Assembly: GCA_947630935.1 (NCBI GenBank)
Contig: CANRJL010000001.1
Span: 1 to 47,372 of the forward strand
Reading direction: 5' to 3'
From: an uncultured Bacilli bacterium
GTDB taxonomy: Bacteria; Bacillota_I; Bacilli_A; RF39; UBA660
Length of the DNA stretch: 47,372 nucleotides
Shown here: positions 3,019-20,450 of the stretch, in pieces
Layout: each line of letters starts with the position of its first letter
Position numbering within the stretch: position 1 is the first letter of the stretch
The notes under the pieces: model-generated
The model's database searches: none
Seen by the model: only the letters and a program-made list of their open reading frames with translations
Told to the model about the DNA's origin: nothing
Position numbers and translations under genes: made by a program

Positions 3019-3648
3019 ATGAAGATTACTGATGAATTAATTCATAAAACTAGTTATTTAAAACATGGTGATTGTTTTTTGAAAAAGATTGATTATAATG
3101 CCTTATATTTCTTTTTAAATTCTGAGCTTTTAGGACACTTTCACCCAAATGATGCTTATGATATGACTATTCATAGTACTTTAAATGGTTTTGAAATTAT
3201 TAATTTAATAACTAACAAAGAATATCTTTTAACTTTAAAAAATTACTTGTTACTACTGCAAGATAAAAATGAAGAAAAAATATATGGGCAAATTACCGCT
3301 TTAGATAATAAATGGCAAAATATAGTAAGAAGTTACTTTATTAAATCTTATGTTGATTGTATTTTTACTATTGAAAATAGAGATTCGCAAGTGTCTTATT
3401 ATTTATATAAGGTAGACGCTAGTAAAATTATTTATGGTGGTAGTTATACACCCCTTTATTTAAAGATTAAAGATAATTTATATTTTGAATATAAAAATAT
3501 GGGAGCTTTAAAAAATAATGCTTCTTCTTTTAAAACAAATAAGGTTTTTATTAACCCAAATGATAATTTTTATGAAAAGTTATTTCAAAGTTTAGAAGAA
3601 CAATTAGTTAAAGATTCTTGGCAAAGAAAAAGAAAGTTAAAATTTTAA
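3019..3648 (+). CDS. Hypothetical cytoplasmic protein
   Basis: 209-aa ORF with AGAGGA upstream of the ATG. No recognisable motif. Its 3' end overlaps the convergent gene by 4 nt. Confidence 0.6.
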   Translation: MKITDELIHKTSYLKHGDCFLKKIDYNALYFFLNSELLGHFHPNDAYDMTIHSTLNGFEIINLITNKEYLLTLKNYLLLLQDKNEEKIYGQITALDNKWQNIVRSYFIKSYVDCIFTIENRDSQVSYYLYKVDASKIIYGGSYTPLYLKIKDNLYFEYKNMGALKNNASSFKTNKVFINPNDNFYEKLFQSLEEQLVKDSWQRKRKLKF

Positions 3649-4145
3649 CTTTCCTTTTCGACAATAAATTTTAATTGATAAGGAACAAAATTTTCACCTT
3701 GTTCATCATTATATAAACGAAATTCATATATTTTTTCAGCAGCAGTTAAACTGTTTGTATCTAATAAATAATAAGTATATTCATTATCGGCATAATTAGT
3801 TTTTTCGGATATGTATTGAACTTCAGCCATTGCAATTTTTAAATGGTCAGTGGCAATTGTTTGGGGTATTCCTATATAAAGTTTATAATTTTCGTGCCGA
3901 TAAGTTGTATTTTGTAAAACTAAATGATATTTAGGTAATTTTTGAGCCATTTCATCAGATATAGCATATAAGATTTTGGAATATACTTTATCTTCAACTA
4001 CTTCAATTAAACTATTTTCAGTATAATAAGCAGCTGTTTGTTTAATATCTGGAAAATCCCATAAATAATAAGTTATGCCAACAAAGAAAAGCCAAAAACA
4101 AATTTCAATTATTTTACGACGTTTTAATTCTTTTAGATAACGCAT
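3645..4145 (-). CDS. Hypothetical membrane-anchored protein, last gene of the SipW block
   Basis: 166 aa with an N-terminal TM (IIEICFWLFFVGITYYLW). AAGGGGGA RBS upstream of the ATG. Confidence 0.6.
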   Translation of the reverse strand: MRYLKELKRRKIIEICFWLFFVGITYYLWDFPDIKQTAAYYTENSLIEVVEDKVYSKILYAISDEMAQKLPKYHLVLQNTTYRHENYKLYIGIPQTIATDHLKIAMAEVQYISEKTNYADNEYTYYLLDTNSLTAAEKIYEFRLYNDEQGENFVPYQLKFIVEKES

Positions 4146-4215: not shown

Positions 4216-5031
4216 TTATTTTTTCTTTTTCTTTTTTGGCTCTTTTAGTTTAGGAATATCTTCTATTTTTTTATTTTTTTTATTTTTACCTACTTCAATA
4301 ATAACTGAAGTTTTCTTTAAAGGGTCTTCTTCATTTTCACTTCTTTTTATGCCATATTTAGAATTTAGTTTTTCTTCTATTTCTTTTTTCTTTTTAGCAT
4401 TTTCTTCTTTTTTCTGTTCTTCTTTTAAAACAATATCAGCAATATCTTTTTGAGCACTTTGTAATCTTATTAATTTTAAGATATCAAAAAGAATGATTAA
4501 AAAGGCTGGGATTACAACAAGAATTAACCAACCCCATCTCGTTGTTAGAATTGATTGAAGTCTTCCTAATTGGGGAATTTTAAAGATTACTTTACCAATA
4601 ATGTTTTCAAATCTTACTGTAGCACTGTCAGGGACTTCATTATTATCCCCTTTTGTTTGGAATTGATAACCATTCTCATCGTTTGTTATGGAGTAAACAC
4701 GATGGGTTATCGTAAACCCTTTGGAAATGGTAGATGTTGAAATAAATGTAATAACATCACCAACTTTAATATCTTCAGGTTTTTTAACTTTGACATTAAC
4801 TATTACATCATAAATGTTTAGATTTGGCTCCATACTTGGTGAAATAATTGTATATAAACCAAAAGATGCTTTATAATCAGGGTTTTTATTTGCATAAACT
4901 TTAGTAGCAATAAAATAGTAAAGAAGAACTATTGCCACTAGAATTAATAAGATAAAAATAGTCCAAGATATAACAGTTGTAACAAAATGGACTTTATGTT
5001 TAATTGAGCTGTATTTTTCTTGTTTCTTCAT
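4216..5031 (-). CDS. sipW: Signal peptidase I, ER/archaeal (SipW) type
   Basis: N-terminal TM, then SPSMEP (catalytic Ser), ITHRV (His) and KGDNN boxes typical of SipW-type S26 peptidases. A second TM (WGWLILVVIPAFLIILF) and a Lys/Glu-rich tail follow. Confidence 0.8.
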   Translation of the reverse strand: MKKQEKYSSIKHKVHFVTTVISWTIFILLILVAIVLLYYFIATKVYANKNPDYKASFGLYTIISPSMEPNLNIYDVIVNVKVKKPEDIKVGDVITFISTSTISKGFTITHRVYSITNDENGYQFQTKGDNNEVPDSATVRFENIIGKVIFKIPQLGRLQSILTTRWGWLILVVIPAFLIILFDILKLIRLQSAQKDIADIVLKEEQKKEENAKKKKEIEEKLNSKYGIKRSENEEDPLKKTSVIIEVGKNKKNKKIEDIPKLKEPKKKKKK

Positions 5032-5134: not shown

Positions 5135-7282
5135 TTATTTTAAAGTTGGATAACCTGTTTCTTGGTCAATAACCCAATCACTTAAGGCTAAATTAAAGTA
5201 ATTGCTATTATATTTATGGTTTATTAAGTCATTATTAATATTTGGCAAGTTGATATCTTGGCGGCCTTTTGTTAATTTGTATATTAAACCATTGGTGTTT
5301 GTGGGGTCTGTTATTTTCATATAAGTTTCACTTAAGGCTTGGGCACTTGTATTATTACTTCCCGATGCACCACCACTTTTATAGTAGGTATCTTTAACAT
5401 CACCATTATATAAGTAGCCAATTTGATATCTAGTACTTCCGCCTAGAACATCTCCCGAGTTATAGGTATTATAAATCTGCTTATGAACATCGTTATTCCA
5501 AGTAACGGTATTAGCAATGCCGCCAACATAATTATGCGAAGTATTATCTTTGATAGTACCTGCATTATAACTATTTAAGATATGGCCACCACCTTGCACT
5601 AAACCAATTAAACCAGCTACTGAACCATTGTAAGCGACAGTTCCGGTATAGGTTACGCTTCCTTTATTATAACTATTTACTATAAAGGTTGTTCCATAAT
5701 TAGCAGCAACTAAACCACCTAAAGATATGATGCCTGTATCAGTTCCTTTACCATTAGTTGATATTTCACCAGCATTATACGAATTATTTATATAGCAATT
5801 ACCATTACTTAAAGCAAGAATACCAGCATTAGTAATAATTGAGTTTTGAACAGTACCTTCATTATAACTATCACTAACGAATAAATGCGAATCATTACCA
5901 ATCGCACCAACTATGCCACCACCATGATTGCCGCCTTGTAATGTACCATGATTAGAACAATTTTCTAGTCGAACATTATCACCTTTTAAATTAATGTTGT
6001 CGTTACCAACACTGCCAATAATACCACCAACAGAATAACCACTGCCATAACTAGTTACATTAACATAATTGTGAACATTTGCTAATTCAACATTAGAGGC
6101 ATAGCTAACTAGTCCCCCAATATTGGCAGTTTCATCAGTATAGGTATTACCTGTAATAGTTAAATTTTTAATACTTCCTCCAACTACAAAACCAAATAAG
6201 CTGGCAACTGTTCGTTCTGGTTTGCCATTATTGCTATGAATATGGATATAGAGATTTTCTAAAGTATGGTTATTGCCATTAAGACTCCCCAGAAAATAAT
6301 GTTCAAAATTGCCAATTGGAGGAAAACCGGTACCATTTTGATTAGTTAATTCTGTGATTAGAGGTTCAACATCATTCACGTTGTTAAGATTACCAAAGTC
6401 TAAACGCTCGCTGTTACGGTAACTTTGGGAATCGGTAAAATCTAAATTACTATCTAAAATAAAGGTTTCATTTTGGAAATTTGCCCCACTATTTACTGAA
6501 TTACTTAAGGTTACTAAATCTTCAACTCTTTGAATGTATTTTGATTTTATTTCTAAATCAGCTGTTATATTATCAACTATTAAAGTATCATTTTCATAAC
6601 GATAATTTACTTCTTGACCAGCAATAAATGGTTTAGCGCCAATTGGATATGGTTTTTGGAGCTCCATTGCAAATGAATCATTATCAATTACTTCTTGTGG
6701 GTAAATACTAGTATCACTATCAAAGGCTGTATAAGTTACTTTATGCATTACCCGAAAATCAAAATTTAAGTCAACAAAATAATCTAGCTTATCCTTATTA
6801 TAGCCATTTTCTTTATATTTAATAATGAAATAAATTTCTTTTTGCATGCCTAAATTACATTTTAATTGGTCATCACATAATTTATCTTTTAGGGTATAAT
6901 TTACAATTTCATATTCTAAATTGTCGGCTAAGCCAGTAATATCATAGATTCCCATCGGAAGATTACCAAAGTTAGTAATTTCGATTTTATATTTTATTTG
7001 GGAATTCTCATTTGGTAAATAAACTGATGTCTTAACTTTTTTAACATTATATTCTTCCCAATTAGATATTGCTTCGTTTTGGTTAAAACTACTATCAGTT
7101 GCTACTGAAATATCAGTGACTCTAATGTCAGCTTGTGCTCTTACAGTTAAAGTAACATCATCCACTAAAAGATTTTGACTAAAAGTTGCCCACCCAAGAG
7201 AAAGAAAGAAAACCATTATAGCTAAAATAAAGAAAATAAGAGAAAAAAGAGGTTTTTCATTACCTATTTTACTTTTTTTCAT
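5135..7282 (-). CDS. Secreted/surface protein: SipW-type signal, TasA-like N-terminal region and GLUG-type repeat (beta-helix-like) C-terminal region
   Basis: 715 aa. N-terminus ends ...FFLSLGWATFSQNLLVDD. KYKIEITNFGN motif. Residues ~380-600 carry recurring N-x-G...GG[IL][IV]G/A units (IGGLVSYA, VGGIIGSV, GGGIVGAI, LGGLVAAN, VAGLIGLV, VGGIANTV). The start overlaps the upstream gene by 14 nt. Confidence 0.7.
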   Translation of the reverse strand: MKKSKIGNEKPLFSLIFFILAIMVFFLSLGWATFSQNLLVDDVTLTVRAQADIRVTDISVATDSSFNQNEAISNWEEYNVKKVKTSVYLPNENSQIKYKIEITNFGNLPMGIYDITGLADNLEYEIVNYTLKDKLCDDQLKCNLGMQKEIYFIIKYKENGYNKDKLDYFVDLNFDFRVMHKVTYTAFDSDTSIYPQEVIDNDSFAMELQKPYPIGAKPFIAGQEVNYRYENDTLIVDNITADLEIKSKYIQRVEDLVTLSNSVNSGANFQNETFILDSNLDFTDSQSYRNSERLDFGNLNNVNDVEPLITELTNQNGTGFPPIGNFEHYFLGSLNGNNHTLENLYIHIHSNNGKPERTVASLFGFVVGGSIKNLTITGNTYTDETANIGGLVSYASNVELANVHNYVNVTSYGSGYSVGGIIGSVGNDNINLKGDNVRLENCSNHGTLQGGNHGGGIVGAIGNDSHLFVSDSYNEGTVQNSIITNAGILALSNGNCYINNSYNAGEISTNGKGTDTGIISLGGLVAANYGTTFIVNSYNKGSVTYTGTVAYNGSVAGLIGLVQGGGHILNSYNAGTIKDNTSHNYVGGIANTVTWNNDVHKQIYNTYNSGDVLGGSTRYQIGYLYNGDVKDTYYKSGGASGSNNTSAQALSETYMKITDPTNTNGLIYKLTKGRQDINLPNINNDLINHKYNSNYFNLALSDWVIDQETGYPTLK

Positions 7283-8411
7283 TAATATTTGGCCTTTCTA
7301 TATCACTTGCTTTTAATTGCAACAAATAAATATCATCATTGTTTTTTAAATAAAAATAGCATTTTTGATGTTTGGTAACATTGTAATACATAATAGGTAT
7401 TTTTAAATTATCCCGAACATCTAGTAATTCCGTAAATTCAGTTATTTTAAAGATATGATATTTATTAAAGTCTATTTTAGTCTTTGTTTCAACAATTAAT
7501 CTATCATAAGTTTTTAATATATTATTTAAATATTTATCATAAGCTGTTTTAGGTTTGAAGAAAATAGTTGTTAATTTAAGAAGATTAACTAAAGCCAGAA
7601 TAGCTATAATAAACGTTATAATTTCAAAAGAAAAAGTTAGAGGGTTAAATTGCCATTCTTCGGGAAGCGATAATTCATTACTTTTATTTAATGTTTCATC
7701 ATCAAATTTAATTTGCACAGCACTTTCGGATAAAGGTATAGTTACTCCACTGGTACTTGTATCTTGAAAATTCAAATGATATTTTTGACCATTTTTATTA
7801 ACTTTTAAATATACTTTTAAGTAGCTTTCTTCATTCACACCATAATTGGTTTTAAAATTATTAACTAAACTATTATAGTAATCATAATCAATAGCAATAC
7901 TTTCAGTTATAGTAAAATCTTTTTGATTTTGCATCGATAACAAAGAAGATGTAAAAAGAGGATATTCTTTTTCAAAATAACTAGCTTTTGTTTGGGGATT
8001 GGCGATGATTAATTTACCAATTATTTGATAATCAAAATCAAGAGATAAAGGTTTAGTTATATTAAATTGATAATTAAAATCAAATTTTATTTCATCTATT
8101 AAGTTGGCAACATACATCATATTTTTTTCTAAATATTCTTTTTCGTAGAAATCATTGGGTTTTAAATATACTTTGTAATCAACAGTTTGATTATCAGTAT
8201 ATTTAAGTGGTTCTGTATTTTTTATTGTAAAAGAGTTGATGGCTAAATAAAAGCAAGTTAAAAGAAAGACAATAAAGATTATGAATAAAAATGCTACTCT
8301 AATTGGATAACTAATATAAATAGGTTTTTTATTTTCTTTTTTTAAGGGTGTTGTTTTGTTTATAGTTTGTTTGGTATTCTTACGCCCTGTTGCATTGTGT
8401 TTTTTAACCAT
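7269..8411 (-). CDS. Two-TM membrane protein, possibly DUF5305 family (SipW-associated)
   Basis: Preferred start is ATG 8411 with GGTGG 5 nt upstream (ORF-track start 8444). TM near the N-terminus (VAFLFIIFIVFLLTCFYLAI) and a second TM near residue ~290 (FEIITFIIAILALVNLL). The family assignment is from memory only. Confidence 0.6.
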   Translation of the reverse strand: MVKKHNATGRKNTKQTINKTTPLKKENKKPIYISYPIRVAFLFIIFIVFLLTCFYLAINSFTIKNTEPLKYTDNQTVDYKVYLKPNDFYEKEYLEKNMMYVANLIDEIKFDFNYQFNITKPLSLDFDYQIIGKLIIANPQTKASYFEKEYPLFTSSLLSMQNQKDFTITESIAIDYDYYNSLVNNFKTNYGVNEESYLKVYLKVNKNGQKYHLNFQDTSTSGVTIPLSESAVQIKFDDETLNKSNELSLPEEWQFNPLTFSFEIITFIIAILALVNLLKLTTIFFKPKTAYDKYLNNILKTYDRLIVETKTKIDFNKYHIFKITEFTELLDVRDNLKIPIMYYNVTKHQKCYFYLKNNDDIYLLQLKASDIERPNINEKK

Positions 8412-8433
8412 ATTAACCACCTTTATTTTTCTT

Positions 8434-9558
8434 TTATTTTTCATTTAGCCAAACTGTTGGTAACCCAATATAGGGAATTTTAATATTAACTACACCAATA
8501 AACATATCTTTAGTAACAGGATAGCCATCTAAATCATCATTGGCATCTCCTTTAGTATATAAATAATATTCATTAGCATATTTTAATTTTTCAACTAAAC
8601 GGTGAACTACAATAATATTATTATATTTGAAAGCTATTACTTGACCAATAGCAACTTCATCTAAATTTTGTTTTTTTTCAACAATTACCACATCACCTTT
8701 GTGGATATTAGGACTCATACTAGCACTAGCAATAGCTAGAGCATAGTATTTAAAATAACCAGATGTAATATATACTAAAAATATGGTAATAATTATGGGA
8801 ATTATTAAAGTTCCTATTTTCTTTTTATGATATTCACGTAAGATTTCTTCATCTTTTTCTTTTTGATAAAAAAGATATATTTTACGAAGTAAGAAAAATG
8901 GAACAAACAGCCAAACTATTGAATATATGTATTGATTTGGGTTAGGAATAAATGGCAGTAAATACATAAATAATTCAATTATTAGCCGAATATATATTAC
9001 AGGTTTATAACCTGTTTTATAACTTATATAACTATATGCAATATTAGCACTTATAGTTGGTAAAACAGTTATAGCAATATAGATGAATTTATCATAAATT
9101 GGATAATTCATATTTCTTAAAAGAGATGTTGATAAATCTAAAAATATAAATAAAATGGTTGTGATTATTCTTAATAATTTTTTATCAGCAGTTTTTAAAA
9201 GCATTTGATAACGAATTATTTCTTTTAAGAAAACAATTATAATAAGGGGAATAATAATATTTGTCATACTTTTTAAAGTATAATAATTTTCAACTTTGGC
9301 AAAACCAAAAAAAATCCCCGAAAGATAATATATTAGAAAAAAGATGATTATAAATATTGATTCTTCCATTATTATATCTTTGGTATACCGGTGATTATCT
9401 TTTTCAAGGCCTAAAAACAGATGAAAACTAGCAAGCATGAGCAGAAGAAATATAATCATTTTCGTACTATCTAATATACTTGAAACAAAACTATTTAATA
9501 TTAAGATAATGAAGATGATTATTTCATATATTAATAAATTCCTATAACCTTTTTTCAT
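8434..9558 (-). CDS. Fusion protein: ~8-TM N-terminal domain + SipW-type signal peptidase I domain
   Basis: 374 aa with AGGAGG RBS. About 8 hydrophobic helices in residues 1-230, then a basic loop (QKEKDEEILREYHKKK), a TM, then SASMSPN (Ser), VHRLV (His) and KGDANDD boxes. Confidence 0.75.
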   Translation of the reverse strand: MKKGYRNLLIYEIIIFIILILNSFVSSILDSTKMIIFLLLMLASFHLFLGLEKDNHRYTKDIIMEESIFIIIFFLIYYLSGIFFGFAKVENYYTLKSMTNIIIPLIIIVFLKEIIRYQMLLKTADKKLLRIITTILFIFLDLSTSLLRNMNYPIYDKFIYIAITVLPTISANIAYSYISYKTGYKPVIYIRLIIELFMYLLPFIPNPNQYIYSIVWLFVPFFLLRKIYLFYQKEKDEEILREYHKKKIGTLIIPIIITIFLVYITSGYFKYYALAIASASMSPNIHKGDVVIVEKKQNLDEVAIGQVIAFKYNNIIVVHRLVEKLKYANEYYLYTKGDANDDLDGYPVTKDMFIGVVNIKIPYIGLPTVWLNEK

Positions 9559-9583
9559 TCTTCCTCCTAAATAGTTTTGTGAA

Positions 9584-9620: not shown

Positions 9621-10274
9621 TTAATTGGCATCTGATGAACTATATGTTAATGTTATGTCGCCAAAGGTAACATCGAAATCACCGTCGATTGGTGATGAAT
9701 CGGAATATTCTAAAATTACTTTAACTTCTTTGCTTGTTTTAGTTGAAATTGATTTAGTAGTAATATTTTCTTTATTTTGAGTATATTCATCTTGGTCCAC
9801 TATTACTTTTATTGAAACATCAGAACAAGCTGTGTTAGCTAATTCGGCATCGGCTGGACTATCACCAGCTGTTGGAGTACATTGAGGTTTTTCTTGCGCA
9901 AATGATACTTTTTTTAAGTAAGCATCAAGTTCGCCATTATTATATACATAAAAACTATAGGTTGCAGTTTGTTTGCCTTTGCCTTTAGTGAAAGTAGCAT
10001 TTAAGTTACTAATTGTTGTTGACATTAAATTAGCATCTGTAGCTGAAAATCCATCTTCTTCTGGTGGAACAAGTGTTGGTTTGACAGAGCCAGTACTGGC
10101 TTCTTCAGATTCGGTCGAAAATTTGACATCAAATTTACTTCTGTCTCCTTTAACATTGGCACTGGAAGAAATTGTTAAGTTTTGAGAATATGAAGCGAAA
10201 CCTAGTGATACACCAAGAACTGCAATAATTAAAGCAATAATAGCAATTATTTTGGAACTACGGTCTTTTTCCAT
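9621..10274 (-). CDS. Secreted TasA/camelysin-like protein with SipW-type signal
   Basis: 217 aa with AGGAGGTG RBS. N-terminus KIIAIIALIIAVLGVSLGFASYSQNLTISS. YSFYVYNNG motif. The C-terminal beta-strand-like end is DFDVTFGDITLTYSS. Confidence 0.6.
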   Translation of the reverse strand: MEKDRSSKIIAIIALIIAVLGVSLGFASYSQNLTISSSANVKGDRSKFDVKFSTESEEASTGSVKPTLVPPEEDGFSATDANLMSTTISNLNATFTKGKGKQTATYSFYVYNNGELDAYLKKVSFAQEKPQCTPTAGDSPADAELANTACSDVSIKVIVDQDEYTQNKENITTKSISTKTSKEVKVILEYSDSSPIDGDFDVTFGDITLTYSSSDAN

Positions 10275-10485
10275 TTTTTCACCTCCTATTCTTTACATTC
10301 TCATTATAAATAGTTTTTTTACTATTCATAAATGGCGGTGAATATCTTGTAAAGTATCATTAGTTGTGATATATCTTTTGCTATCTTACAATTTATTCTT
10401 ATATAAATTATATATATTTATTAATAATTTAGCAAGATATTTTTAATGCTTTATGTTCAAAATGTTAACCAAAATGGCAATTAAA

Positions 10486-10534: not shown

Positions 10535-13500
10535 CTAATCTTTTAGTGATTTATCTTCACCAATAGCAATTGCTGCACTGTATTTTTTACCTTGTTGTTT
10601 GTTTTGGTCTTGTAAAGTATCTTTGAAAGTGTATATAACATCATAACTATAAACGGTATGAGCTGGTATCATAATCTCTGGGAATAAGACGCCATCTTCG
10701 ATTGGCGATGGACTTTCGCCTTTATCCAGAGCTCTATCTTTTTTGATAACGTATACTAAATCGGACGGTGGGTCAAATTCATTAGTTACACTTTCAAAAT
10801 TGATACTATAGAATATCGCTCGGTCAGTTGAATTGTTTATAGTGAAGGTTTGAGTTCCTGTCCAATTCGGCATGATTCCGGTTTCATTAATGCCTTTAAC
10901 GTAATTTATTAAAAAGACGCCATCATCACCACAATTAAAGTCACAGTTACCATCATGGTCATTATCAACAAATTTATCTGGTTTACCATCACCATTGGTA
11001 TCACAGTTTAAATCACAATGGTCATCGTTATCGATATCACAGTTTAAATCGCAGTGGGAATCACCATCTAAGAAGCAATTCCAATCACATTTACCATCTT
11101 TATCTTTATCGACATTTTTATCTGGTTTACTATCACCATCGGTATCACAGTTTAAGTCACACTGGTCATCCCAATCGGTATCACAATCAATATCACATAA
11201 ACCATCTTTATCTTTGTCTAAGTTTTTATCTGGGATATCATCATCATCAGTGTCACAGTTGGTATCGCAACGACCATCGCCATTATTATCACAGTTTAGG
11301 TCACATTTACCATCTTTGTCAGTATCACAATTGGTATCACATTTACCATCATTGTTATTATCACAGTTTAGGTCGCATTTGCCGTCACCATCTTTATCGA
11401 CATTGGTATCAGGTTTATCATCATTATCAGTATCACAGTTAGTGTTACATTTATCGCTACCCTCATTATAGCAATTTAAGTCACACTTACCATCGCCATC
11501 TTTATCAACGTTTTTATCTGGCTTATCATCGCCGTTGGTATCACAGTTAGTGTTACATTTATCGCTACCCTCATTGTAACAATTTAAGTCACACTTACCA
11601 TCACCATTTTTATCGACATTTTTATCTGGCTTGTCATCATCGTTGGTATCACAGTTTAAATCACATTTGCCATCATTGTTGGTGTCACAATTTAAATCGC
11701 ATTTGCCGTCACCGTTTTTATCGACATTGGTATCAGGTTTGTCATCATTATTGGTATCGCAGTTTAATTCGCACTTACCATCATTGTTGGTATCACAATT
11801 TAAGTCACATTTACCATCGTTGTTATTATCACAATTTAGGTCACATTTATCGTCGTTATTGGTATCACAATTTAAGTCACACTTGCCGTCGCCGTTTTTA
11901 TCAACATTGGTATCAGGTATTTTATTGTTGTCAGTATCACAGTTAAGGTCACATTTGCCATCATTGTTGGTGTCACAGTTTAAGTCACACTTACCATCAT
12001 CATTTTTATCAACATTAGTATCTGGTTCTCCATCGCCATTATTATCACAATTTTTATCGCAAGTGCCATCATTATTGATATCGCAATTTAAGTCACACTT
12101 ACCATCTTTATTGGTGTCACAGTTTAAATCACACTTACCATCGCCATTCGTATCGCAATTTAAGTCACATTTACCGTCATTGTTGGTATCGCAATTAGTA
12201 TCGCATTTACCATCGTTATCGGTATCACAGTTTAAATCACAAATACCATCACCGTTTTTATCAACATTAGTATCTGGTTCTCCATCAGCATTGGAGTCAC
12301 AGTTGGTATCACATTTGCCGTCACCATCAATATCACAGTTGTAGTTACATGTTTTATCATCACAATTATAATCGCATTTACCATCGCCATTACTATCACA
12401 ATATTTGTTACATAAACCATCACCAGTGGTATCACAATTTAAATCACAGAAGCCATCTTTATTATTATCTAAATTTTTATCAGGAATATTATCATTATTG
12501 GTGTCACAATTTAATTCGCATTTGCCATCATTGTTGGTATCACAGTTTAAATCACAAACACCATCATTATCTTTGTCAACATTTAAATCAGGAATACCAT
12601 CGTTATTCGTGTCACAATTTTTATCACATTTATCATCATTATTGATATCACAGTTTAAATCGCAAGTACCATCATTATTGGTATCACAATTATAATCACA
12701 TTTACCATCATTATTGGTATCGCAGTTTACATCGCATTTGCCGTCGCCAGTAATGTCAACATTAGTATCTGGTAGGCCATCACCATTGGTGTCACAGTTT
12801 AGGTCACACTTACCATCGTTGTTGGTATCGCAATTTAAGTCACATTTACCGTCACCATTGGTATCGCAATTTAAGTCACACTTATCATCATTATCTTTGT
12901 CAATGTTTAAATCAGGAGTGCCATCATTATTCGTGTCACAATTTAGGTCACATTTACCATCACCGTCTTTATCAATGTTTAAATCAGGTTCATCATCACC
13001 ATTGGTGTCACAATTTAATTCACATTTGCCATCACCATTGGTATCGCAGTTTAAATCGCAAATGCCATCATCATTTTTATCGACGTTTTTATCTGGCTTA
13101 TCATCATTGTTGGTATCACAGTTAGTATCGCAGGTACCATCACCGTTGATGTCACAGTTTAAGTCACAAGTACCATCGCCATCAGTATCAACATTAGTAT
13201 CTGGTTTATCATCATTATTGGTATCGATATTTTTATCAGGAATATCATCATTATTAGTATCACAATTTAATTCACATTTGCCGTCATTGTTGGTATCACA
13301 GTTTAAATCACACTTACCATCGCCGTTTTTATCAACGTTTTTATCTGGCTTGTCATCATTGTTGGTATCACAATTTAATTCACATTTGCCATCACCATTG
13401 GTATCACAATTTAGGTCACACTTACCATCACCATCTTTATCGATGTTACTATCAGGAATATTATCACCATTGGTATCGCAGTTTAAATCGCAATAATAAT

Positions 13501-14374
13501 CACCATTGGTATCACAGTTTAGGTCACACTTACCATCGCCATCAAGGTCAACATTTAAATCAGGTTTTTGGTCATTGTTTTTATCGATATTTTGGTCAGC
13601 TAAACCATCGTTATTAGTATCACAGTTTATATCACATTTGCCGTCACCATCAGTATCAATATTTAGGTCTGGTTTGCCATCACCATCGACATCGATGTTG
13701 ATATCTGGAAAACCATCGTTATTAGTATCACAGTTTAAGTCACATTTACCATCACCGTTTTTATCTTGATTCATTAAATTTTCATTTGGTTTGCCATCAC
13801 CAGTAGTATCAATATTAATATCTGGTTTACCATCTCTGTCAATATCAATATTAATATCTGGTTTGCCATCACCATCGACATCAATGTTTAAGTCTGCTTG
13901 GCCATCACCATCAATATCAATATTAATATCTGGGCGATTATCTTTATCAATATCACAGTTTAAATCACACTTACCATCATTATCAGTATCTTGATTAATC
14001 ATATTTTTGTCAGCGATGCCATCGCCATTAGAATCAACATTAAATACTGCAGAATGAATTTGACCATAACTTATATTAACATCTGGCAATTTATCATCAT
14101 TAGTGTCAATATCATAGTCAGCTTTACCATCATTATTATAATCACAGTTTAAATCACAGATGCCGTCACCATTTAAATCTTGATTTAAGGTATTACGACT
14201 GGAATGAAAAATCTTAATATAGCTATAAGTAGAACCTACTATTCCTAAAAACATAATTAAAAATAACAGAATAATAATTATTATAGTTCTTCTTCTTTCT
14301 TTTTCTTTTTCATTATCTAGTAAATCAGCATATTTTTTTTCTAAACCGTAGTCATTTAAACTATTTTTATCCAT
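10535..14374 (-). CDS. Giant secreted Asp/Asn/Cys-rich repeat protein (thrombospondin type-3-like Ca-binding repeats) with SipW-type signal and TasA-like C-terminal domain
   Basis: 1279-aa uninterrupted ORF with AGGAG RBS. N-terminus RRRTIIIIILLFLIMFLGIVGSTYSYIKIF. Residues ~66-1152 are 12-aa units such as CDLNCDTNNDGK and PDTNVDKNGDGK. The last 127 aa are non-repetitive (IMPNWTGTQTFTINNS ... QGKKYSAAIAIG). Confidence 0.85.
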   Translation of the reverse strand: MDKNSLNDYGLEKKYADLLDNEKEKERRRTIIIIILLFLIMFLGIVGSTYSYIKIFHSSRNTLNQDLNGDGICDLNCDYNNDGKADYDIDTNDDKLPDVNISYGQIHSAVFNVDSNGDGIADKNMINQDTDNDGKCDLNCDIDKDNRPDINIDIDGDGQADLNIDVDGDGKPDINIDIDRDGKPDINIDTTGDGKPNENLMNQDKNGDGKCDLNCDTNNDGFPDINIDVDGDGKPDLNIDTDGDGKCDINCDTNNDGLADQNIDKNNDQKPDLNVDLDGDGKCDLNCDTNGDYYCDLNCDTNGDNIPDSNIDKDGDGKCDLNCDTNGDGKCELNCDTNNDDKPDKNVDKNGDGKCDLNCDTNNDGKCELNCDTNNDDIPDKNIDTNNDDKPDTNVDTDGDGTCDLNCDINGDGTCDTNCDTNNDDKPDKNVDKNDDGICDLNCDTNGDGKCELNCDTNGDDEPDLNIDKDGDGKCDLNCDTNNDGTPDLNIDKDNDDKCDLNCDTNGDGKCDLNCDTNNDGKCDLNCDTNGDGLPDTNVDITGDGKCDVNCDTNNDGKCDYNCDTNNDGTCDLNCDINNDDKCDKNCDTNNDGIPDLNVDKDNDGVCDLNCDTNNDGKCELNCDTNNDNIPDKNLDNNKDGFCDLNCDTTGDGLCNKYCDSNGDGKCDYNCDDKTCNYNCDIDGDGKCDTNCDSNADGEPDTNVDKNGDGICDLNCDTDNDGKCDTNCDTNNDGKCDLNCDTNGDGKCDLNCDTNKDGKCDLNCDINNDGTCDKNCDNNGDGEPDTNVDKNDDGKCDLNCDTNNDGKCDLNCDTDNNKIPDTNVDKNGDGKCDLNCDTNNDDKCDLNCDNNNDGKCDLNCDTNNDGKCELNCDTNNDDKPDTNVDKNGDGKCDLNCDTNNDGKCDLNCDTNDDDKPDKNVDKNGDGKCDLNCYNEGSDKCNTNCDTNGDDKPDKNVDKDGDGKCDLNCYNEGSDKCNTNCDTDNDDKPDTNVDKDGDGKCDLNCDNNNDGKCDTNCDTDKDGKCDLNCDNNGDGRCDTNCDTDDDDIPDKNLDKDKDGLCDIDCDTDWDDQCDLNCDTDGDSKPDKNVDKDKDGKCDWNCFLDGDSHCDLNCDIDNDDHCDLNCDTNGDGKPDKFVDNDHDGNCDFNCGDDGVFLINYVKGINETGIMPNWTGTQTFTINNSTDRAIFYSINFESVTNEFDPPSDLVYVIKKDRALDKGESPSPIEDGVLFPEIMIPAHTVYSYDVIYTFKDTLQDQNKQQGKKYSAAIAIGEDKSLKD
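10919..14179 (-). repeat. In-frame tandem coding repeat, 36-nt period (108-nt higher order), ~90 units
   Basis: The periodicity is visible in both the DNA and the translation. The opposite strand is stop-free over long stretches as a side effect. Confidence 0.9.
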
Positions 14375-14504: not shown

Positions 14505-15170
14505 TTATGCAGCATCGTTTACTTCAAAACCAATATCTAAACTAAATGTTTTGCCTTGTTCAGCATTTTGGTCTTGACCAGCGTCATTAACATATTCTAG
14601 ATATAAATAATACATACTATCAGTAGAAGTATCAACAGTAATATCTTCAGTAATAGGAGTATCAGATGCAATTATTTGAGCATTATGACCAGCAACTTCT
14701 TTACCTTCTAATGAAGTTAAAGTACAAGTCATTTTATCATAATGTTTATGGTCATCAGTTTCAGGGTCTGATGGTTGAGATGAAGTACATAATTCTTCTG
14801 CTGTAATATCAGAATAATCAGGACTATCAACTTTGTAAAGAGTATATTTCATATGACTTGGAAATAATGTTGAACCTGTTGGAGTCAATTTAATAGTTGC
14901 TTTAGTTGACTCAGCTCCAGCTTCTCCTCCTCCTTTAACTTTTAAAGTTTTTATTCCTTTCCAGCCTGGTAAAGCATCTGTTACTTCGATTTTATCTCCT
15001 AATGTCATAGTAGCTGATGCTAATGCTTTAGTTTTAATTTGAGTAGTATTATTAGCTGGGTTATCAATTTTTACATTTGCAGTGAAATATGCGAATGTTG
15101 CCCCAACAACTGCTACTAATAAAGTGGCAACAGCTATTACTGTTAATAAAACCATATTTTTCCTTTCCAT
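14505..15170 (-). CDS. Secreted TasA/CalY/camelysin-like matrix-fibre protein with canonical SipW-type signal
   Basis: 221 aa with GAGAGGAG RBS. N-terminus VLLTVIAVATLLVAVVGATFAYFTANV is close to the G-T-F/Y-A-F/Y-F-S/T signature of SipW-cognate signals. LPGWKGIKTLKVKGG motif. C-terminal DQNAEQGKTFSLDIGFEV resembles the camelysin-family C-terminus. The gene has its own promoter-like and terminator elements. Confidence 0.7.
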   Translation of the reverse strand: MERKNMVLLTVIAVATLLVAVVGATFAYFTANVKIDNPANNTTQIKTKALASATMTLGDKIEVTDALPGWKGIKTLKVKGGGEAGAESTKATIKLTPTGSTLFPSHMKYTLYKVDSPDYSDITAEELCTSSQPSDPETDDHKHYDKMTCTLTSLEGKEVAGHNAQIIASDTPITEDITVDTSTDSMYYLYLEYVNDAGQDQNAEQGKTFSLDIGFEVNDAA

Positions 15171-15410: not shown

Positions 15411-17768
15411 TTAATTAATTGTTGGGTCAAATTTATGAAATATTTTTTGACAAAAATCGTACAATTTTTTAAAGACATATAAGGAATCTAAAATTAAGAC
15501 AAAACTTATTAGAATTGTTTCAGGACTAAATTTAGTTAAGTTAAAAAATTCGTTTTGAAATGTGATACAATAGATGAAGCCAATTAACATAATGCTAAAC
15601 AAAATTCTTCTTAGCCAACTAAAGGGAATACTTATTTTGTAAAGGAATATTAAACCTGTAATACCTGTTAGATATACAGCTAAGGTGTTGATAAGGGTAT
15701 AATCAAGATGAAAAATATTAGCAAAAGCGGTTATTAAGATTATGTTAAAAAATACCGTTAAAGCAGTAGGCAGGCTTTTACTAATTATTCGTAAAAGAAA
15801 TTTCCCTCTTACTAAATCATTGTTGGGCTCTAAAGCTAAAATAAATGAGGGAATACCAATAGTAAAACTGGTAATTAGGGTTAATTGAATAGGTACAAAA
15901 AAGTATTTAGAACCAACGATGATGCTAAAGATGATTAAAAGCATGGTATAAATAGTTTTAACTAAAAGTAAAGAACTAGACCGTTCAATGTTATTAATGG
16001 TACGTCTTCCTTCGGCTACTATTTTAGGTAAAGAATCAAAATTATCATTTAATAAGACTAATTGCGCAACATTACGAGCTGAATCAGTGGCACTAGCAAG
16101 AGAAATGGCACAGTCACTTTTTTTCAATGCTAAGACATCATTTACACCATCGCCAGTCATAGCTACACATTTACCATTATTTTGTAATGTTTCAATAATT
16201 ACTTTTTTTTGATTAGGCGTTACTCTACCAAAAATAGCATATTCGGATACCGCATTTTTTAATTCTTCTTCACTTAGATTAGCCGTATCAAGGGCTTTGG
16301 CGGTAGTTAAGCCAACTTTGTTAGCAATTTTTAAAACTGTTTGGTAACTATCACCGGAAATTATTTTGACATCTACTCCTTGTTTTTTAAAGTAAGCTAA
16401 GGTATCTTTAGCTTCTTGTCTTATTACATCTTCCAAAGTTATGAAAGCTAAAGGTTCCAAATTTTTAGGGTTTTTAGAGATATCTGTTTTACTTTTAGCA
16501 ACTAATAAAACCCGATATTCTTTTTGATAAGAATTTAATTTAGGATATTGGTTTTGGCGTTTTTCTTCTAATAAATATTCTGGGGCTCCTAAATAAATTG
16601 TCTCGTCTTTAAAAGCAATAGCCGAAAATTTGCGTTCACTAGAAAATGGTAACTTATCTAAGACTTCAAGTTTTTTTTCTTCTTTAAAGTATTCTTTTAA
16701 AGCACGCATGGTGGCATTATTATCTGAAGATGCTGAGGCAAAAGCATTTATAATTTCAGTAACTTCTTCTTGAGAAGAATTAAGAGGTATTATTTCTTTT
16801 ACTAACATATTGCCTTTAGTTAAGGTGCCAGTTTTATCTAAGCAAATAGTATCAACTCTTGCTAGAGTTTCTATGCAATATAATTGCTGAACTAAAACTT
16901 TATATTTTGCTAATCTAATAACACTTACAGCCATGACAGAACTGGTTAGTAAAACTAAACCTTCAGGAATCATTCCTATTAAGGAAGCAACTGTTGTAAA
17001 AATAGCTTCGGAAACATTGCCATTGGTACTGTTATATTGACTGAAAAACATAACAATTCCAATTGGAATAATTAAATAAGAAATTAGTTTTAAGATATCT
17101 TCAAAAGATTTCATTATAATGGAATTGATTGGTTTTTGATATTTAGCTTCTTTAGATATTTTAGAGGTATAATTGTCAGCTCCAATATGTTCTATTTTGG
17201 CTAGACAACTACCACTGACAATAAAAGAACCTGATAAAAGCATATCTTTTTTTCTTTTAATAATTGTATCAGATTCACCAGTGATAAATGATTCATTTAC
17301 TTCTACTTCATCTTCCATAATAATGGCATCAGCAGTGATTTGGTCGCCAGCACTTACTTTAATAATATCATCTAAGACTAATTCTTCTAAATTACATTTT
17401 TTTTCGGTACCATCTCTAATAACAGTTATTGCAGATTCACTAATAATAGAAAGTCTATCTATTATTTTTTTGGAAATTATTTCTTCAATAATACTAATAA
17501 TTGAATTGATAATAATAACACCCATGAAAAGACAATTTTTTAAACCATTTAAAAAATTATTATTTAATAAACCAGCAATGAAAACGGCGATGCCTAAAGC
17601 AATATTTAAAAAATTAAAGTAAGTAAAAAAATTATCTTTAATTATTTGGGCAATTGTTTTGGTTTTAGGTTGGTCATTATAATTTGTTAAACCATCTTTT
17701 ATTCGTTGTTCTACTTCTTCGGTTGTTAGACCTTTGGTAAGAGGTGGTGAATATCGTTGAACTTTCAT
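15411..17768 (-). CDS. Cation-translocating P-type ATPase (P2-like, substrate unknown)
   Basis: 785 aa with TGES (ITGESD), PEGL (MIPEGLVLL), DKTGTLT and MTGDGVNDVLALKK motifs and multiple C-terminal TMs. Confidence 0.9.
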   Translation of the reverse strand: MKVQRYSPPLTKGLTTEEVEQRIKDGLTNYNDQPKTKTIAQIIKDNFFTYFNFLNIALGIAVFIAGLLNNNFLNGLKNCLFMGVIIINSIISIIEEIISKKIIDRLSIISESAITVIRDGTEKKCNLEELVLDDIIKVSAGDQITADAIIMEDEVEVNESFITGESDTIIKRKKDMLLSGSFIVSGSCLAKIEHIGADNYTSKISKEAKYQKPINSIIMKSFEDILKLISYLIIPIGIVMFFSQYNSTNGNVSEAIFTTVASLIGMIPEGLVLLTSSVMAVSVIRLAKYKVLVQQLYCIETLARVDTICLDKTGTLTKGNMLVKEIIPLNSSQEEVTEIINAFASASSDNNATMRALKEYFKEEKKLEVLDKLPFSSERKFSAIAFKDETIYLGAPEYLLEEKRQNQYPKLNSYQKEYRVLLVAKSKTDISKNPKNLEPLAFITLEDVIRQEAKDTLAYFKKQGVDVKIISGDSYQTVLKIANKVGLTTAKALDTANLSEEELKNAVSEYAIFGRVTPNQKKVIIETLQNNGKCVAMTGDGVNDVLALKKSDCAISLASATDSARNVAQLVLLNDNFDSLPKIVAEGRRTINNIERSSSLLLVKTIYTMLLIIFSIIVGSKYFFVPIQLTLITSFTIGIPSFILALEPNNDLVRGKFLLRIISKSLPTALTVFFNIILITAFANIFHLDYTLINTLAVYLTGITGLIFLYKISIPFSWLRRILFSIMLIGFIYCITFQNEFFNLTKFSPETILISFVLILDSLYVFKKLYDFCQKIFHKFDPTIN

Positions 17769-17858: not shown

Positions 17859-20450
17859 TTAAACACCTCTTTTAATACCTTTCTTTTTAAGAATTATTTT
17901 GCGGATAAAATCAATGGGAATGACAGTGAGACTTAAAATGATGACTAACATTAATTCAAAAGGAGTTAAACCAAAGGTGCGAAAAAGACTACCTCCTTTA
18001 TATATTAGAAAAATTTGAACACTGGCAATGAAAATGATTGTTATGATAAAAACAATATTTTTTCTTAAATGAGCAAATAAATTTAAACGATAGGTTCGAG
18101 CATTAAAAGCATTTGCTATACCAATAAATATAAATAAAGCAAAGTAAGCAGTCATTAAATATTTTAATTCTTGGTCTGTTCTAATTAAGGTTTTTATCCA
18201 AGAAGATTTGAGAAAAAAAATACAGAGCATGGCTGAATATAAACCTGTCCAAATTACTTCGGAAATCATATATTTGTTTAAGATTGGTTCATTTTTCTTT
18301 TTGGGAGGTTCTTTCATAGTTTCTGGTAAAGCTGGTTCAAAGGAAAAAGCTAAGCCGGCAAAAGTATCCATAATCATATTTATCCAAAGCATTTGAATTA
18401 TGGTTATTGGCGTATTTACACCAATAAAAGGGCCAATTATTGATAAGAATAAAGCACAGAAATTACAGGTTAGTTGATATATAAGAAATTTACGAATACT
18501 TTTAAAGATAGTTCGACCATATAAAATAGCTTTACTAATTGACATTATGTTATCATCTAAAATGACAATATCACTAGCTTGTTTGGCAACTTCGGTGCCA
18601 CTGCCCATGGCAAACCCAACATTAGCTTTTTTGAGGGCTGGAGCATCATTTACCCCATCGCCAGTCATTCCCACAATTAATTCTTTATTTTCGGCAATTT
18701 TGATTAATTTACTTTTATCTTTTGGTAAAGCCCTGGCAATTACGCGAAGATTGGGCAGCATTTTTTCAAGTTCATATTCTGAATAGGAATTTAATTGGTC
18801 ACTTGTTAAGACAAGGTCAGTAGGTTTAGTAATTATCCCTACTTCTTTGGCAATGGCTGTAGCTGTTTCTTTAGCATCACCAGTAATCATGACAACTTGA
18901 ATTTGAGCGTCTTTAATTAATTTAACTCCTTCTTTAGCTTCTTTTCTTAAATCATCTTTTAAAGTAACAAACCCAATAAAAGTTAAATCATCTAAAGACT
19001 TTCCATAGGCTAAAGAAATAACTCGACAGCCTTGTTTGGTCAAATTATTAATTTCAGTTTCTATTTTTTGCTTGTCTAATAAATATTTTTCGGTGCCATT
19101 TTTTAATAACATTTTATGACATTTAGGTAAAATTTTTTCACTAGCTCCTTTGATATAAAAGTATTGTTCATGGTTGTCGATGATGGTTGCAGTTGAATAT
19201 TTATTAGCACTATCAAAAGGAGTTTTAGCAATAATTTGCACATTGGCAGTTTTTTCATGAGCTAAAAAGGAAAGTAATGCTTGGTCAGTGGAATTACCGC
19301 CAATAATTTTATTTTGAGAAAAAACACTGCTGTTGTTATAATATAAGTTATTTTCAATATGTTTTGCTAATTGTTCATATTTCCAAAAGTCATTTTTAGT
19401 TTTGAAATTAAGTAATTCACCAGTAGTTATGCCTATTACTTCTAATTTTCCTTTGGTTAGAGTACCTGTTTTATCAGTAAATAAAATGTTTAAAGAACCT
19501 GTTGTTTCGATTCCGACTAATTTACGAACTAAAACATTATTTTTTAACATTCTTTTCATATTGCTAGATAACACTAAAGTAATCATCATCGGCAGTCCTT
19601 CAGGTACTGCTACTACTATGATGGTGACAGATAAGGTTAAGGCATAAATTAAGTAATCTGCCATTTGCTGAAAATCTGTCAAGGTATTTATAATTTCTGG
19701 CATAGAAAAATGATTATTGATTACTATGACAGAAAATAAATAAGAAAATGTAACCAACACCGCCCCGATATAACCAATTTTACTAATTGTTTTAGCTAAG
19801 CCACGCAAGCGAAGTTTTAAGGGACTCATAGGTTCTTTTTCTTGAATTTCTTGAGCAAGTGCTCCATAAACAGTATTTTCGCCAACTTTAGTTACTAACA
19901 TTTTAGCTTGTCCCGAATAAACAACTGAGCCTCGTAAAACTTGCGATTTAAGATTGTCTTTAGCGATAGCTTCTTTCTTAATTTCTTTGCTTTCACCATT
20001 TAATTTAGATTCATCAACTGATATACTTCCTTCTATTAGATAACCATCTGCAGGAATGGCATCACCAGAAGTAAGAATAATGACGTCATCAACTACTACT
20101 TGTTCTAAAGGTATTTCTTTTAAAAGATTATTTCTAAATACTTTCACAAAAGTTTTAGCACTTTCTTCTTGTAATCTTTTAAAGGCTTCTTCACTACCAT
20201 ATTCACTGATGGTTGAGATAAATGAGGACAAAAAAATAGCAATTAAAATTCCTAAGGTTTCAAACCAGTCAAAATCGCGAAACAAAAAAACTATTTTAAT
20301 AGCTAAGGCTATTAAAAGAATTTTGATAATAGGATCGCCTAAAGACTCTAAAAGGAGTCTTAAAAAGCCTTTTTGTTTGACTTTGATAATTGTATTTGTT
20401 CCATATTCTTTTCTTCGTTTTTCGACTTCTTTGTCTGTTAGTCCTATCAT
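17859..20450 (-). CDS. P-type ATPase, Ca2+-ATPase-like (PMCA/SERCA-type P2)
   Basis: 863 aa. N-terminal GLTDKEVEKRRKEYGTN, VPEGLPMMITL (PEGLP), TDKTGTLT, MTGDGVNDAPALKKANVGFAMG and 10-TM-like hydrophobic segments. Confidence 0.85.
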   Translation of the reverse strand: MIGLTDKEVEKRRKEYGTNTIIKVKQKGFLRLLLESLGDPIIKILLIALAIKIVFLFRDFDWFETLGILIAIFLSSFISTISEYGSEEAFKRLQEESAKTFVKVFRNNLLKEIPLEQVVVDDVIILTSGDAIPADGYLIEGSISVDESKLNGESKEIKKEAIAKDNLKSQVLRGSVVYSGQAKMLVTKVGENTVYGALAQEIQEKEPMSPLKLRLRGLAKTISKIGYIGAVLVTFSYLFSVIVINNHFSMPEIINTLTDFQQMADYLIYALTLSVTIIVVAVPEGLPMMITLVLSSNMKRMLKNNVLVRKLVGIETTGSLNILFTDKTGTLTKGKLEVIGITTGELLNFKTKNDFWKYEQLAKHIENNLYYNNSSVFSQNKIIGGNSTDQALLSFLAHEKTANVQIIAKTPFDSANKYSTATIIDNHEQYFYIKGASEKILPKCHKMLLKNGTEKYLLDKQKIETEINNLTKQGCRVISLAYGKSLDDLTFIGFVTLKDDLRKEAKEGVKLIKDAQIQVVMITGDAKETATAIAKEVGIITKPTDLVLTSDQLNSYSEYELEKMLPNLRVIARALPKDKSKLIKIAENKELIVGMTGDGVNDAPALKKANVGFAMGSGTEVAKQASDIVILDDNIMSISKAILYGRTIFKSIRKFLIYQLTCNFCALFLSIIGPFIGVNTPITIIQMLWINMIMDTFAGLAFSFEPALPETMKEPPKKKNEPILNKYMISEVIWTGLYSAMLCIFFLKSSWIKTLIRTDQELKYLMTAYFALFIFIGIANAFNARTYRLNLFAHLRKNIVFIITIIFIASVQIFLIYKGGSLFRTFGLTPFELMLVIILSLTVIPIDFIRKIILKKKGIKRGV

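Follow-up and report, generated by a model that had tools for sequence, protein, structure and literature searches.

Gene Order and Composition of the Locus

A window of 47,372 nucleotides (nt), the whole stretch of DNA analysed here, from an uncultured Bacilli bacterium (assembly GCA_947630935.1, contig CANRJL010000001.1) contains a gene for a signal peptidase whose catalytic domain is fused to an eight-helix membrane module. This fusion peptidase gene stands in a cassette of four genes on the reverse strand, together with genes for a secreted acidic beta-sandwich protein of 217 amino acids (aa), called sec217 below, for a DUF5305 protein with two transmembrane (TM) helices, and for a secreted protein of 715 aa. 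Taken together, the four genes plausibly form a system for the production of a pilus or biofilm-matrix fibre, in which the fusion enzyme would be the dedicated signal peptidase. The coordinates of the cassette, including the state of each open reading frame (ORF) where it was assessed, are collected in Table 1.

Table 1. Genes, domains and sites of the cassette, with positions in the window.
Feature	Position	Strand	Remarks
Promoter-like site upstream of sec217	10407..10435	-	10/12 hexamer matches; weak consensus match only
sec217, secreted acidic beta-sandwich protein, 217 aa	9621..10274	-	Directly upstream of the fusion gene
Polytopic signal peptidase (fusion) gene	8434..9558	-	374 aa; stop codon 8434-8436; ORF intact
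Eight-helix N-terminal membrane domain	8821..9558	-	Residues 1-246
Ninth TM helix	8761..8817	-	Residues 248-266; membrane anchor of the peptidase domain
Predicted extracytoplasmic signal peptidase I domain (SipW/Sec11-like)	8437..8760	-	TIGR02228 and SEC11A alignment
DUF5305 two-TM protein	7269..8444	-	PF17231, E 3.1e-12, 46.9 bits (cut-off 29)
Secreted protein, 715 aa	5135..7282	-	First 14 nt lie within the end of the DUF5305 gene

Gene order was compared in 80 genome loci (L001-L080), in more distant loci, and in 50 further metagenome loci. In all 80 genome loci the cassette lies on one strand, and its order is constant. One to three genes, each for a protein of ~217-240 aa, come first; the fusion peptidase gene is second, a gene for a ~360-400-aa protein with two TM helices third, and in most loci a gene for a protein of 450-1,300 aa closes the series. 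The same order is found in the more distant members and in the 50 metagenome loci, many of which come from the human gut. More specifically, a sec217 homologue (1-3 copies) stands upstream of the fusion gene in 76 of the 80 genome loci, the DUF5305 gene follows the fusion gene in about 78 of them and in most distant metagenome loci, and homologues of the 715-aa protein occupy the same position in most loci. A recurrent distant variant (L088-L109 and L127) appears almost unchanged on human gut metagenome contigs of up to 778 kb. It combines a 181-aa subunit with the sequence GYA/ALSTTLNINGTSTI (here and below, a slash marks the cleavage point), a 386-aa fusion peptidase, and a short DUF5305-like protein of ~200 aa.

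The genes of the cassette are closely packed. Within the window, 62 nt separate sec217 from the fusion gene; the distance from there to the DUF5305 gene is -11 or +22 nt, according to which start codon the latter uses, and the last distance, to the gene of the 715-aa protein, is -14 nt. The original prediction, made from the window sequence before the present analysis, had reported an overlap between the fusion gene and its downstream neighbour. This overlap amounts to 11 nt for the longest ORF, which starts at the ATG at 8444, and gives way to a 22-nt gap when translation is taken to begin at the ATG at 8411, the probable true start, which has the better ribosome-binding site (RBS), AAGGTGG. 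Across loci, the spacing between the peptidase gene and the next gene ranges from -14 to +25 nt in all but two of 72 cases. The peptidase and DUF5305 genes are therefore tightly coupled, whichever start is used.

Moreover, the complete cassette (subunit, fusion peptidase and DUF5305 protein) is present twice in some genomes, either in tandem or at separate loci. For instance, second copies lie ~5.4 kb upstream in L022 and ~8.4 kb upstream in L039, and L001 and L005 belong to one metagenome-assembled genome (MAG). Such duplication of the cassette within genomes argues for a dedicated role of the enzyme rather than a housekeeping one. The promoter-like site upstream of sec217 is no evidence of function, since the promoter and terminator scan was uninformative, with site counts equal to those obtained from shuffled sequence.

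Architecture and Topology of the Fusion Peptidase

The fusion gene is preceded by an RBS rated as strong (AGGAGG at 9563-9568, 4 nt 5' of the ATG). Its product begins with the eight helices of the N-terminal domain, continues through a basic cytoplasmic loop (YQKEKDEEILREYHKKK, residues 231-247) directly before the ninth helix (TM9), and ends with a signal peptidase domain of the endoplasmic reticulum (ER)/archaeal type. Kyte-Doolittle hydropathy and an AlphaFold2 model place the N-terminal helices at residues 3-25, 31-48, 59-84, 95-122, 127-149, 154-182, 185-200 and 209-238. The model of residues 1-246, built on 15 relatives, reached a predicted local distance difference test score (pLDDT) of 83 and a predicted template modelling score (pTM) of 0.81. 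The two approaches agree with each other and with the original prediction, which had described a polytopic domain of about eight helices followed by one further TM helix.

The identity of the catalytic domain is clear from several models. Residues 250-372 match TIGR02228 with 74.9 bits (cut-off 51.85, E 6e-21), and the Pfam S24 and S26 models both score above their gathering thresholds on this domain. In the SipW equivalog model NF046067, the enzyme scores 53.3 bits and thus falls below the cut-off of 190. All three motifs quoted in the original prediction were found where it had put them, namely SASMSPN at residues 278-284, VHRLV at 318-322 and KGDANDD at 336-342, and in the alignment their counterparts in human SEC11A (7P2P) are SGSMEP, VHRV and KGDNN..DD. 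The catalytic residues are S280 (8719-8721), H319 (8602-8604) and D338 (8545-8547). This Ser-His(-Asp) set stands where LepB-type enzymes carry a Ser-Lys dyad, and it is conserved in 100% (S280), 99% (H319) and 100% (D338) of 214 full-length relatives.

A C-terminal TM helix is not present in the fusion protein, and the tail after PTVWL is 2-12 aa long in the 214 relatives. With the eight helices and TM9, the total is therefore nine. A tenth TM helix occurs in none of the 50 metagenome cassettes. In the same set of 214 relatives, the predicted cytoplasmic loops contain on average 16.2 Lys and Arg residues (K+R), compared with 3.0 in the outer loops. This bias indicates that the N-terminus lies inside and the peptidase outside. 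The original prediction had put the peptidase domain outside the membrane on the basis of helix count, and the charge distribution likewise places it, as a prediction, on the trans (outer) side. An SGxFxY motif specific to the family follows TM9 on this face. The architecture is atypical for S26 enzymes, as had been pointed out in that prediction.

Distribution of the Fusion

A search with the N-terminal domain alone returned 294 proteins, nearly all of them 374-376 aa long and equipped with S24/S26 domains; the named matches among them are annotated 'signal peptidase I [Bacilli bacterium]'. An exhaustive profile search with the same domain, covering 1.84 billion cluster representatives (50% identity), gave 1,082 clusters at E <= 1e-3 and 655 at E <= 1e-10, and a homology search with a divergent profile gave 14 matches. 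Among the best 150 of the 1,082 profile matches, complete relatives are nearly all 360-391 aa long. Shorter relatives end at arbitrary points and are therefore fragments rather than a class of stand-alone modules, a possibility that was considered and rejected on account of these ragged ends. Two long outliers, P0214 (812 aa) and P0192 (458 aa), look chimeric.

Relatives are encoded in 117 species-representative genomes, all of them uncultured gut Bacilli or MAGs labelled 'Tenericutes', sampled from rabbit, ruminant, human, mouse and chicken. The family is thus large: it exceeds 1,000 clusters at 50% identity and is represented in 117 or more species of these uncultured bacteria. As judged from these sequence comparisons, the fusion is genuine, obligate and active-looking, because the architecture recurs, S280, H319 and D338 are conserved, and the K+R bias of the loops is maintained.

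The Eight-Helix Module

The alignment of 214 sequences reveals a small set of near-invariant residues in the module: E113 (9220-9222; 99%), R116 (9211-9213; 100%), N172 (9043-9045; 95%), G81, P202, P205 and P220. A single helical turn separates E113 from R116, close to where TM4 reaches the cytoplasmic side, and N172 lies in TM6. On the outer face, the loops G81-F86-A87 and P202-P205-Y210 are conserved, and the model contains a short pair of strands there (86-88 with 203-205). The conserved polar residues of the module face mostly the cytoplasm.

No known family accounts for this domain. The module has no match in Pfam or NCBIfam; a comparison of 25 diverse N-terminal domains with Pfam, at E values up to 5, gave scattered chance matches, none of them consistent; and a sequence search of the PDB with the fusion protein gave matches confined to the peptidase part. 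A Foldseek search of the PDB with the module model returned nothing significant, the top match being APH-1B (E 2.2, TM-score 0.35-0.40), which is itself a non-catalytic scaffold. The assignment of the N-terminal domain to a known family was rejected after these searches, and a match to a well-known unrelated family, which the original prediction had named as one way in which its proposal could fail, was found in none of Pfam, PDB sequences and Foldseek. Since Pfam and NCBIfam do not cover it, the module is a clean candidate for a new domain family. An internal 4+4 duplication was also considered and rejected, as hhalign of the two halves gave a probability of 2%.

Another suggestion of the original prediction, a functional analogy to sortase-like polytopic enzymes, gained no support. 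No Cys or His is conserved in the module across the 214 sequences, and neither a Pfam nor a structural match to such enzymes was obtained. Furthermore, there is no conserved His, Cys, Ser or Asp pair like those of Rce1/CPBP, rhomboid, presenilin/signal peptide peptidase (SPP), site-2 protease or exo/archaeosortase enzymes. The catalytic Cys-Arg-His set of sortase-like enzymes and the CPBP motifs EExxxR, FxxxH and HxxxN are absent, and only E113-x-x-R116 and N172 are prominent. The lack of conserved Cys and His argues against chemistry of the sortase, CPBP/Rce1, rhomboid or presenilin kind.

The Proposed DUF5305 Partner

The DUF5305 protein has an extracellular beta-rich domain between its two TM helices, and among 73 aligned homologues its cytoplasmic C-terminal domain is the most conserved part. 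It is proposed here to be an accessory subunit of the peptidase, by analogy with two described systems. The first is AbpX, a fibre protein of the TasA superfamily with loci in Bacillota, Chloroflexota and Thermoproteota; in these loci DUF5305 has been proposed as an accessory of the type I signal peptidase (SPase I) and is sometimes fused to it (bioRxiv 10.64898/2026.01.04.697558). The second is that of haloarchaeal Tat-fimbriae (tafi), in which TafG is a DUF5305 protein encoded beside the peptidase TafD, and deletion of tafD blocks both the processing of TafA and the formation of fimbriae (PMC11821415, PMC12337348). The link between the fusion enzyme and the downstream two-TM protein, for which a complex had been suggested from the apparent gene overlap, is strengthened by this family assignment, by the adjacency of the two genes in about 78 of 80 loci, and by the SPase I accessory role given to the family in the literature.

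Presumed Substrates

The protein encoded upstream, sec217, is the candidate for the major fibre subunit and is presumed to be a substrate of the peptidase. Its predicted cleavage region reads ...LGFA/SYSQNLTISSSANV. At the family level, a conserved n-region (MEKDR...) and an h-region of 18 residues are followed by ...SLGFA/AFSxxLTIxSSAxV. The strand that would be freed resembles a donor strand (SYSQNLTISSSA; family pattern AFSxxLxIxxSA), with hydrophobic residues at positions 2, 6 and 8. An AlphaFold2 model built on 50 sequences (pLDDT 89.7) shows a signal helix at residues 5-23, no secondary structure from 24 to 48, and a beta-sandwich with a single helix after that. The two Cys residues C132 and C150 are invariant, and the mature protein is acidic (isoelectric point (pI) 4.43; 14.7% Asp plus Glu).

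The 715-aa protein, a candidate tip or adhesin subunit, carries the related sequence ...SLGWA/TFSQNLLV, and its N-terminus aligns with the signal and donor region of sec217 (E 3.7e-4). Its C-terminal half is rich in Gly and contains a faint GLUG motif (E 0.029). The shared N-terminal signature is a regular property of the cassettes. In its strict form, it occurs in at least one small upstream protein in 69 of 79 loci; in a looser form, it is found in 44 of 56 large downstream proteins, compared with 3 of 380 other ORFs of the same loci. Distant loci display the variants AFA/VLSTTLNI, GYA/FFNSNLNI and GYA/ALSTTLNI. Additionally, a neighbour in the window that passes TIGR04088 (14505-15170) has a signal that aligns with that of sec217 (E 2e-4).

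A weak resemblance extends to AbpX, whose sequence was taken from the preprint supplement and checked against PDB 9SJ2 and 9RHP. The sec217 profile can be aligned with its segment ...GLTYA/QWSETLSLSATI without a shift in register (local E 0.007, probability 5.6%), so that W2, L6 and L8 of AbpX pair with F/Y2, L6 and I8 of the profile. Classification of sec217 as a homologue of TasA/camelysin or of AbpX was rejected, as only the signal and donor-strand segment aligns.

A separate observation concerns the n-region of sec217. Residues 1-8 (10251-10274) are conserved across loci L001-L080 (MEKDRSSK, MEKNR, MERDR and similar forms), which is unusual for signal peptides. This conservation, combined with the cytoplasm-facing conserved parts of the module and of DUF5305, hints that the substrate may be recognised on the cytoplasmic side.

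Comparison with Known Systems

The closest described counterparts are the AbpX loci. According to the preprint, these loci in bacteria and archaea encode a dedicated SPase I with ten TM helices instead of the usual two, and the extra helices are given one sentence and no function (bioRxiv 10.64898/2026.01.04.697558). Literature searches yielded nothing more specific. Several features are shared with the present cassette: a multi-TM SPase I of the ER type (TIGR02228) is encoded next to a secreted subunit that is small and acidic and bears an amphipathic donor strand at its N-terminus, genes for DUF5305 and for a large tip-like protein belong to the same locus, and the subunits resemble each other in size (a precursor of 217 aa here), in having two Cys residues, in pI, and in Asp/Glu content. 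Among the differences, the globular domain of sec217 has no significant similarity to AbpX, and the hosts of the present cassettes are uncultured gut Bacilli. A metagenome scan with AbpX gave no match. Because a multi-TM SPase I and DUF5305 are already described for AbpX loci, this kind of system has been outlined before, and the large gut-associated family reported here is a newly found member of the system type outlined in papers of 2025-2026.

In the haloarchaeal system, a dedicated S26 peptidase (TafD) likewise stands beside a DUF5305 protein (TafG) and donor-strand fibre subunits. However, TafD has four TM helices, carries its peptidase domain at the N-terminus and a further domain, on the outside, at the C-terminus, and lacks an eight-helix N-terminal module, and its substrates use twin-arginine translocation (Tat) signals. 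The tapA-sipW-tasA operon of B. subtilis also provides an ER-type Ser-His signal peptidase dedicated to fibre subunits, and the cleavage context of TasA (...GTWA/AFNDIK, with the mature start confirmed against 8AUR) can be compared with ...LGFA/AFSxxL here. Unlike the fusion enzyme, SipW has one N-terminal and one C-terminal TM helix, and the present cassette contains DUF5305 in place of TapA.

The eukaryotic signal peptidase complex offers a further parallel. The catalytic domain aligns with SEC11A and SEC11C (7e-6 and 3e-5; 7P2P, 7P2Q), and the two systems share the idea that extra TM helices around a single catalytic anchor form the working unit. In eukaryotes, the helices belong to separate subunits (SPCS1-3), whereas eight are fused in cis here and DUF5305 would contribute another two. 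The module was not detectably similar to the SPCS proteins in sequence or fold.

Proposed Mechanism and Alternative Explanations

With moderate confidence, we favour the view that the fusion enzyme is the dedicated signal peptidase of a four-gene fibre cassette, that together with DUF5305 it exposes the donor strands of the subunits, and that the module serves as a scaffold or docking platform. Cleavage, complex and fibre are predicted for this cassette from its genes and models, and we infer in the same manner that sec217 and the 715-aa protein are substrates, that polymerisation proceeds by strand donation, that DUF5305 takes part in the complex, and that the module has a role of this kind.

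The proposed sequence of events is as follows. Subunits would be exported with long, TM-like signal peptides. The Ser-His(-Asp) domain, held on the outer face of the membrane by TM9 and the eight-helix module and probably in complex with the two-TM DUF5305 protein, would cut after the small residue of a G-[F/Y/W]-[A/S] motif. The freed N-terminal amphipathic strand (x-aromatic-S-x-x-L-x-I...) would then insert into the beta-sandwich of the next subunit by donor-strand complementation, the mechanism of TasA, AbpX, tafi and archaeal bundling pili. For the large protein with the same kind of strand, a function as tip or adhesin is proposed. The module would most likely be a non-catalytic scaffold that positions the peptidase and docks DUF5305 and/or uncleaved signal anchors. 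It would perhaps also shape a window of thinned membrane, a role that in eukaryotes falls to the accessory subunits of the signal peptidase complex.

The best structural matches of sec217, although all weak (E 0.009-0.2), are an uncharacterised beta-sandwich from Clostridioides and the pilins CfaE, FimA/FimI, PapK and CupB6. The named entries are chaperone-usher pilins that use donor strands, and they were counted in favour of a fibre. The acidity of mature sec217 was counted likewise, since AbpX-like proteins are described as acidic.

Several findings weigh against this interpretation. The globular part of sec217 has no sequence match in the PDB, whether a single sequence or a profile is used, and no Pfam match to Peptidase_M73/TasA. 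TasA and AbpX are absent from the top 50 Foldseek matches, of which the best has E 8.7e-3, and hhalign gives a probability of 0.4% for TasA and, in global alignment, 0.2% for AbpX. Position 4 of the sec217 donor strand is Q and is variable in the family; in AbpX this position is acidic and linked to calcium, according to the preprint cited above. In one distant branch, position 2 is occupied by Leu instead of an aromatic residue. By our count the fusion enzyme has nine TM helices and none at the C-terminus, whereas the preprint gives ten for the AbpX-locus SPase I, a difference that may be one of counting. Finally, the near-invariant intramembrane residues E113, R116 and N172 may point to an activity rather than a scaffold.

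It is conceivable, albeit unlikely, that the module is an undescribed membrane machine, more than a passive anchor, by which Gram-positive gut bacteria link the cleavage of signal peptides with the assembly of fibres. Such a machine may hold the uncleaved subunit through the conserved E/R/N site, which lies within the membrane and faces the cytoplasm, hand the freed strand to the fibre, or degrade the released signal peptide. If this were true, the module and DUF5305 would constitute a minimal pilus-assembly platform, fused to a peptidase and working without chaperone-usher or sortase.

We give still less credence to a module that is itself an enzyme or transporter, either a built-in signal-peptide peptidase, an intramembrane hydrolase that would destroy the TM-like signal peptides remaining after cleavage, or a carrier of a lipid- or ion-dependent activity at the buried E113, R116 and N172. 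The location of these residues in TM4 and TM6, towards the cytoplasmic leaflet, would suit such an activity. The h-regions of the substrates, at ~18 residues, are long enough that cleared peptides would remain in the membrane, and the fusion is obligate. Nonetheless, the module lacks a conserved catalytic His/Cys/Ser/Asp pair of the known intramembrane enzymes, the 25 members compared with Pfam gave no consistent match, and Foldseek found no significant one, with the APH-1B scaffold at the top.

A role as an anchor or assembly platform of the fibre is rather improbable as well. Here the module would resemble TapA or AbpB, and it would keep hold of the base subunit, or act as chaperone of the freed donor strand, until the next subunit takes over. 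The original prediction had suggested substrate docking, polymerisation or anchoring, with TapA as the analogue. The cassette encodes no separate small anchor protein, the outer-face loops with their two-stranded bridge and the SGxFxY motif after TM9 are conserved on the appropriate side, and TapA is reported to be a chaperone of TasA by strand complementation. On the other hand, most of the conserved polar residues of the module are on the cytoplasmic side, and nearby sortase and LPXTG genes provide another route for anchoring.

It is very improbable that the enzyme is a general housekeeping type I signal peptidase with a large anchor and an incidental neighbourhood. The plain name 'signal peptidase I' that NCBI gives to relatives and the small genomes of these gut Bacilli would fit such a role. 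What speaks against it is the strict synteny with proteins of one N-terminal motif in at least 130 loci, the duplication of cassettes within genomes, and the presence of a second, canonical SipW-type peptidase in the same window (4216-5031). An assembly or frameshift artefact joining two genes, a danger named in the original prediction, is refuted for practical purposes by the same architecture and length in hundreds of independent assemblies (294 proteins, 1,082 clusters and 117 genomes), a continuous frame and a strong RBS.

The dedicated peptidase with a scaffolding module thus remains the favoured explanation. What makes the system interesting is above all its uncharacterised module, along with a set of only four genes that lends itself to experiments. 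Fibres built by strand donation, such as those of TasA, AbpX and tafi, are an emerging cross-domain route to biofilm matrices and pili, for which subunit processing and the start of the fibre at the membrane are poorly understood. Because the family is large and the order of the cassette is fixed, the four genes offer a compact test system, which could address the role of DUF5305, the role of the extra helices, and whether these little-known gut bacteria produce adhesive fibres of importance for colonisation.

Other Features of the Window

Two small ORFs without a family match (3645-4145, minus strand, and 3019-3648, plus strand) lie beside uvrB (967-2952), where the cluster ends on its downstream side; one of them encodes 166 aa with an N-terminal TM helix. 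The second peptidase gene (4216-5031, minus strand) encodes a canonical SipW-type enzyme of 271 aa with a C-terminal TM helix and a Lys-rich tail. Its inclusion in the conserved cassette was rejected, as just 2 of 80 loci have it close to the cassette. On the other side, the gene at 14505-15170 (minus strand) encodes a 221-aa protein that passes TIGR04088, the model for SipW-dependent signals, with 23.6 bits against a cut-off of 19 (...VVGATFAYFTANVKI). These two genes make up a second, canonical system flanking the cassette.

Between sec217 and this protein, a gene at 10535-14374 (minus strand) encodes 1,279 aa with 25% Asp, 16% Asn and 9% Cys. A 12-aa (36-nt) unit, for example DTNNDGKCDLNC, is repeated ~60 times and makes up most of the protein, with a super-repeat of 108 nt. 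It begins with a TM helix ending in ...GIVGSTYSYIKIF, a cleavage region similar to the SipW type, and closes with a non-repetitive C-terminal domain of ~150 aa; its MSCRAMM matches are compositional. From its sequence, the protein looks like a calcium-binding surface or matrix protein.

Two P-type ATPase genes (15411-17768 and 17859-20450, both minus strand) are located just upstream of the matrix-protein genes, and one of them is of the Ca/cation type, with Cation_ATPase_N and Cation_ATPase_C domains. In view of the calcium dependence reported for AbpX fibres, this proximity may be suggestive, or perhaps it is a coincidence. Further upstream, the genes at 20562-21719 and 21801-22496 (both minus strand) encode surface proteins in which a 'NPKCEFKDNKYYNQ.GQE.DK' unit recurs and which have a TM helix or LPXTG/NPXTG-like anchors at the C-terminus, and one of them has a faint match to the fimbrial protein TafA (E 0.012). 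Beside these surface-protein genes, a 525-aa sortase with a long N-terminal extension is encoded at 22684-24261 (plus strand).

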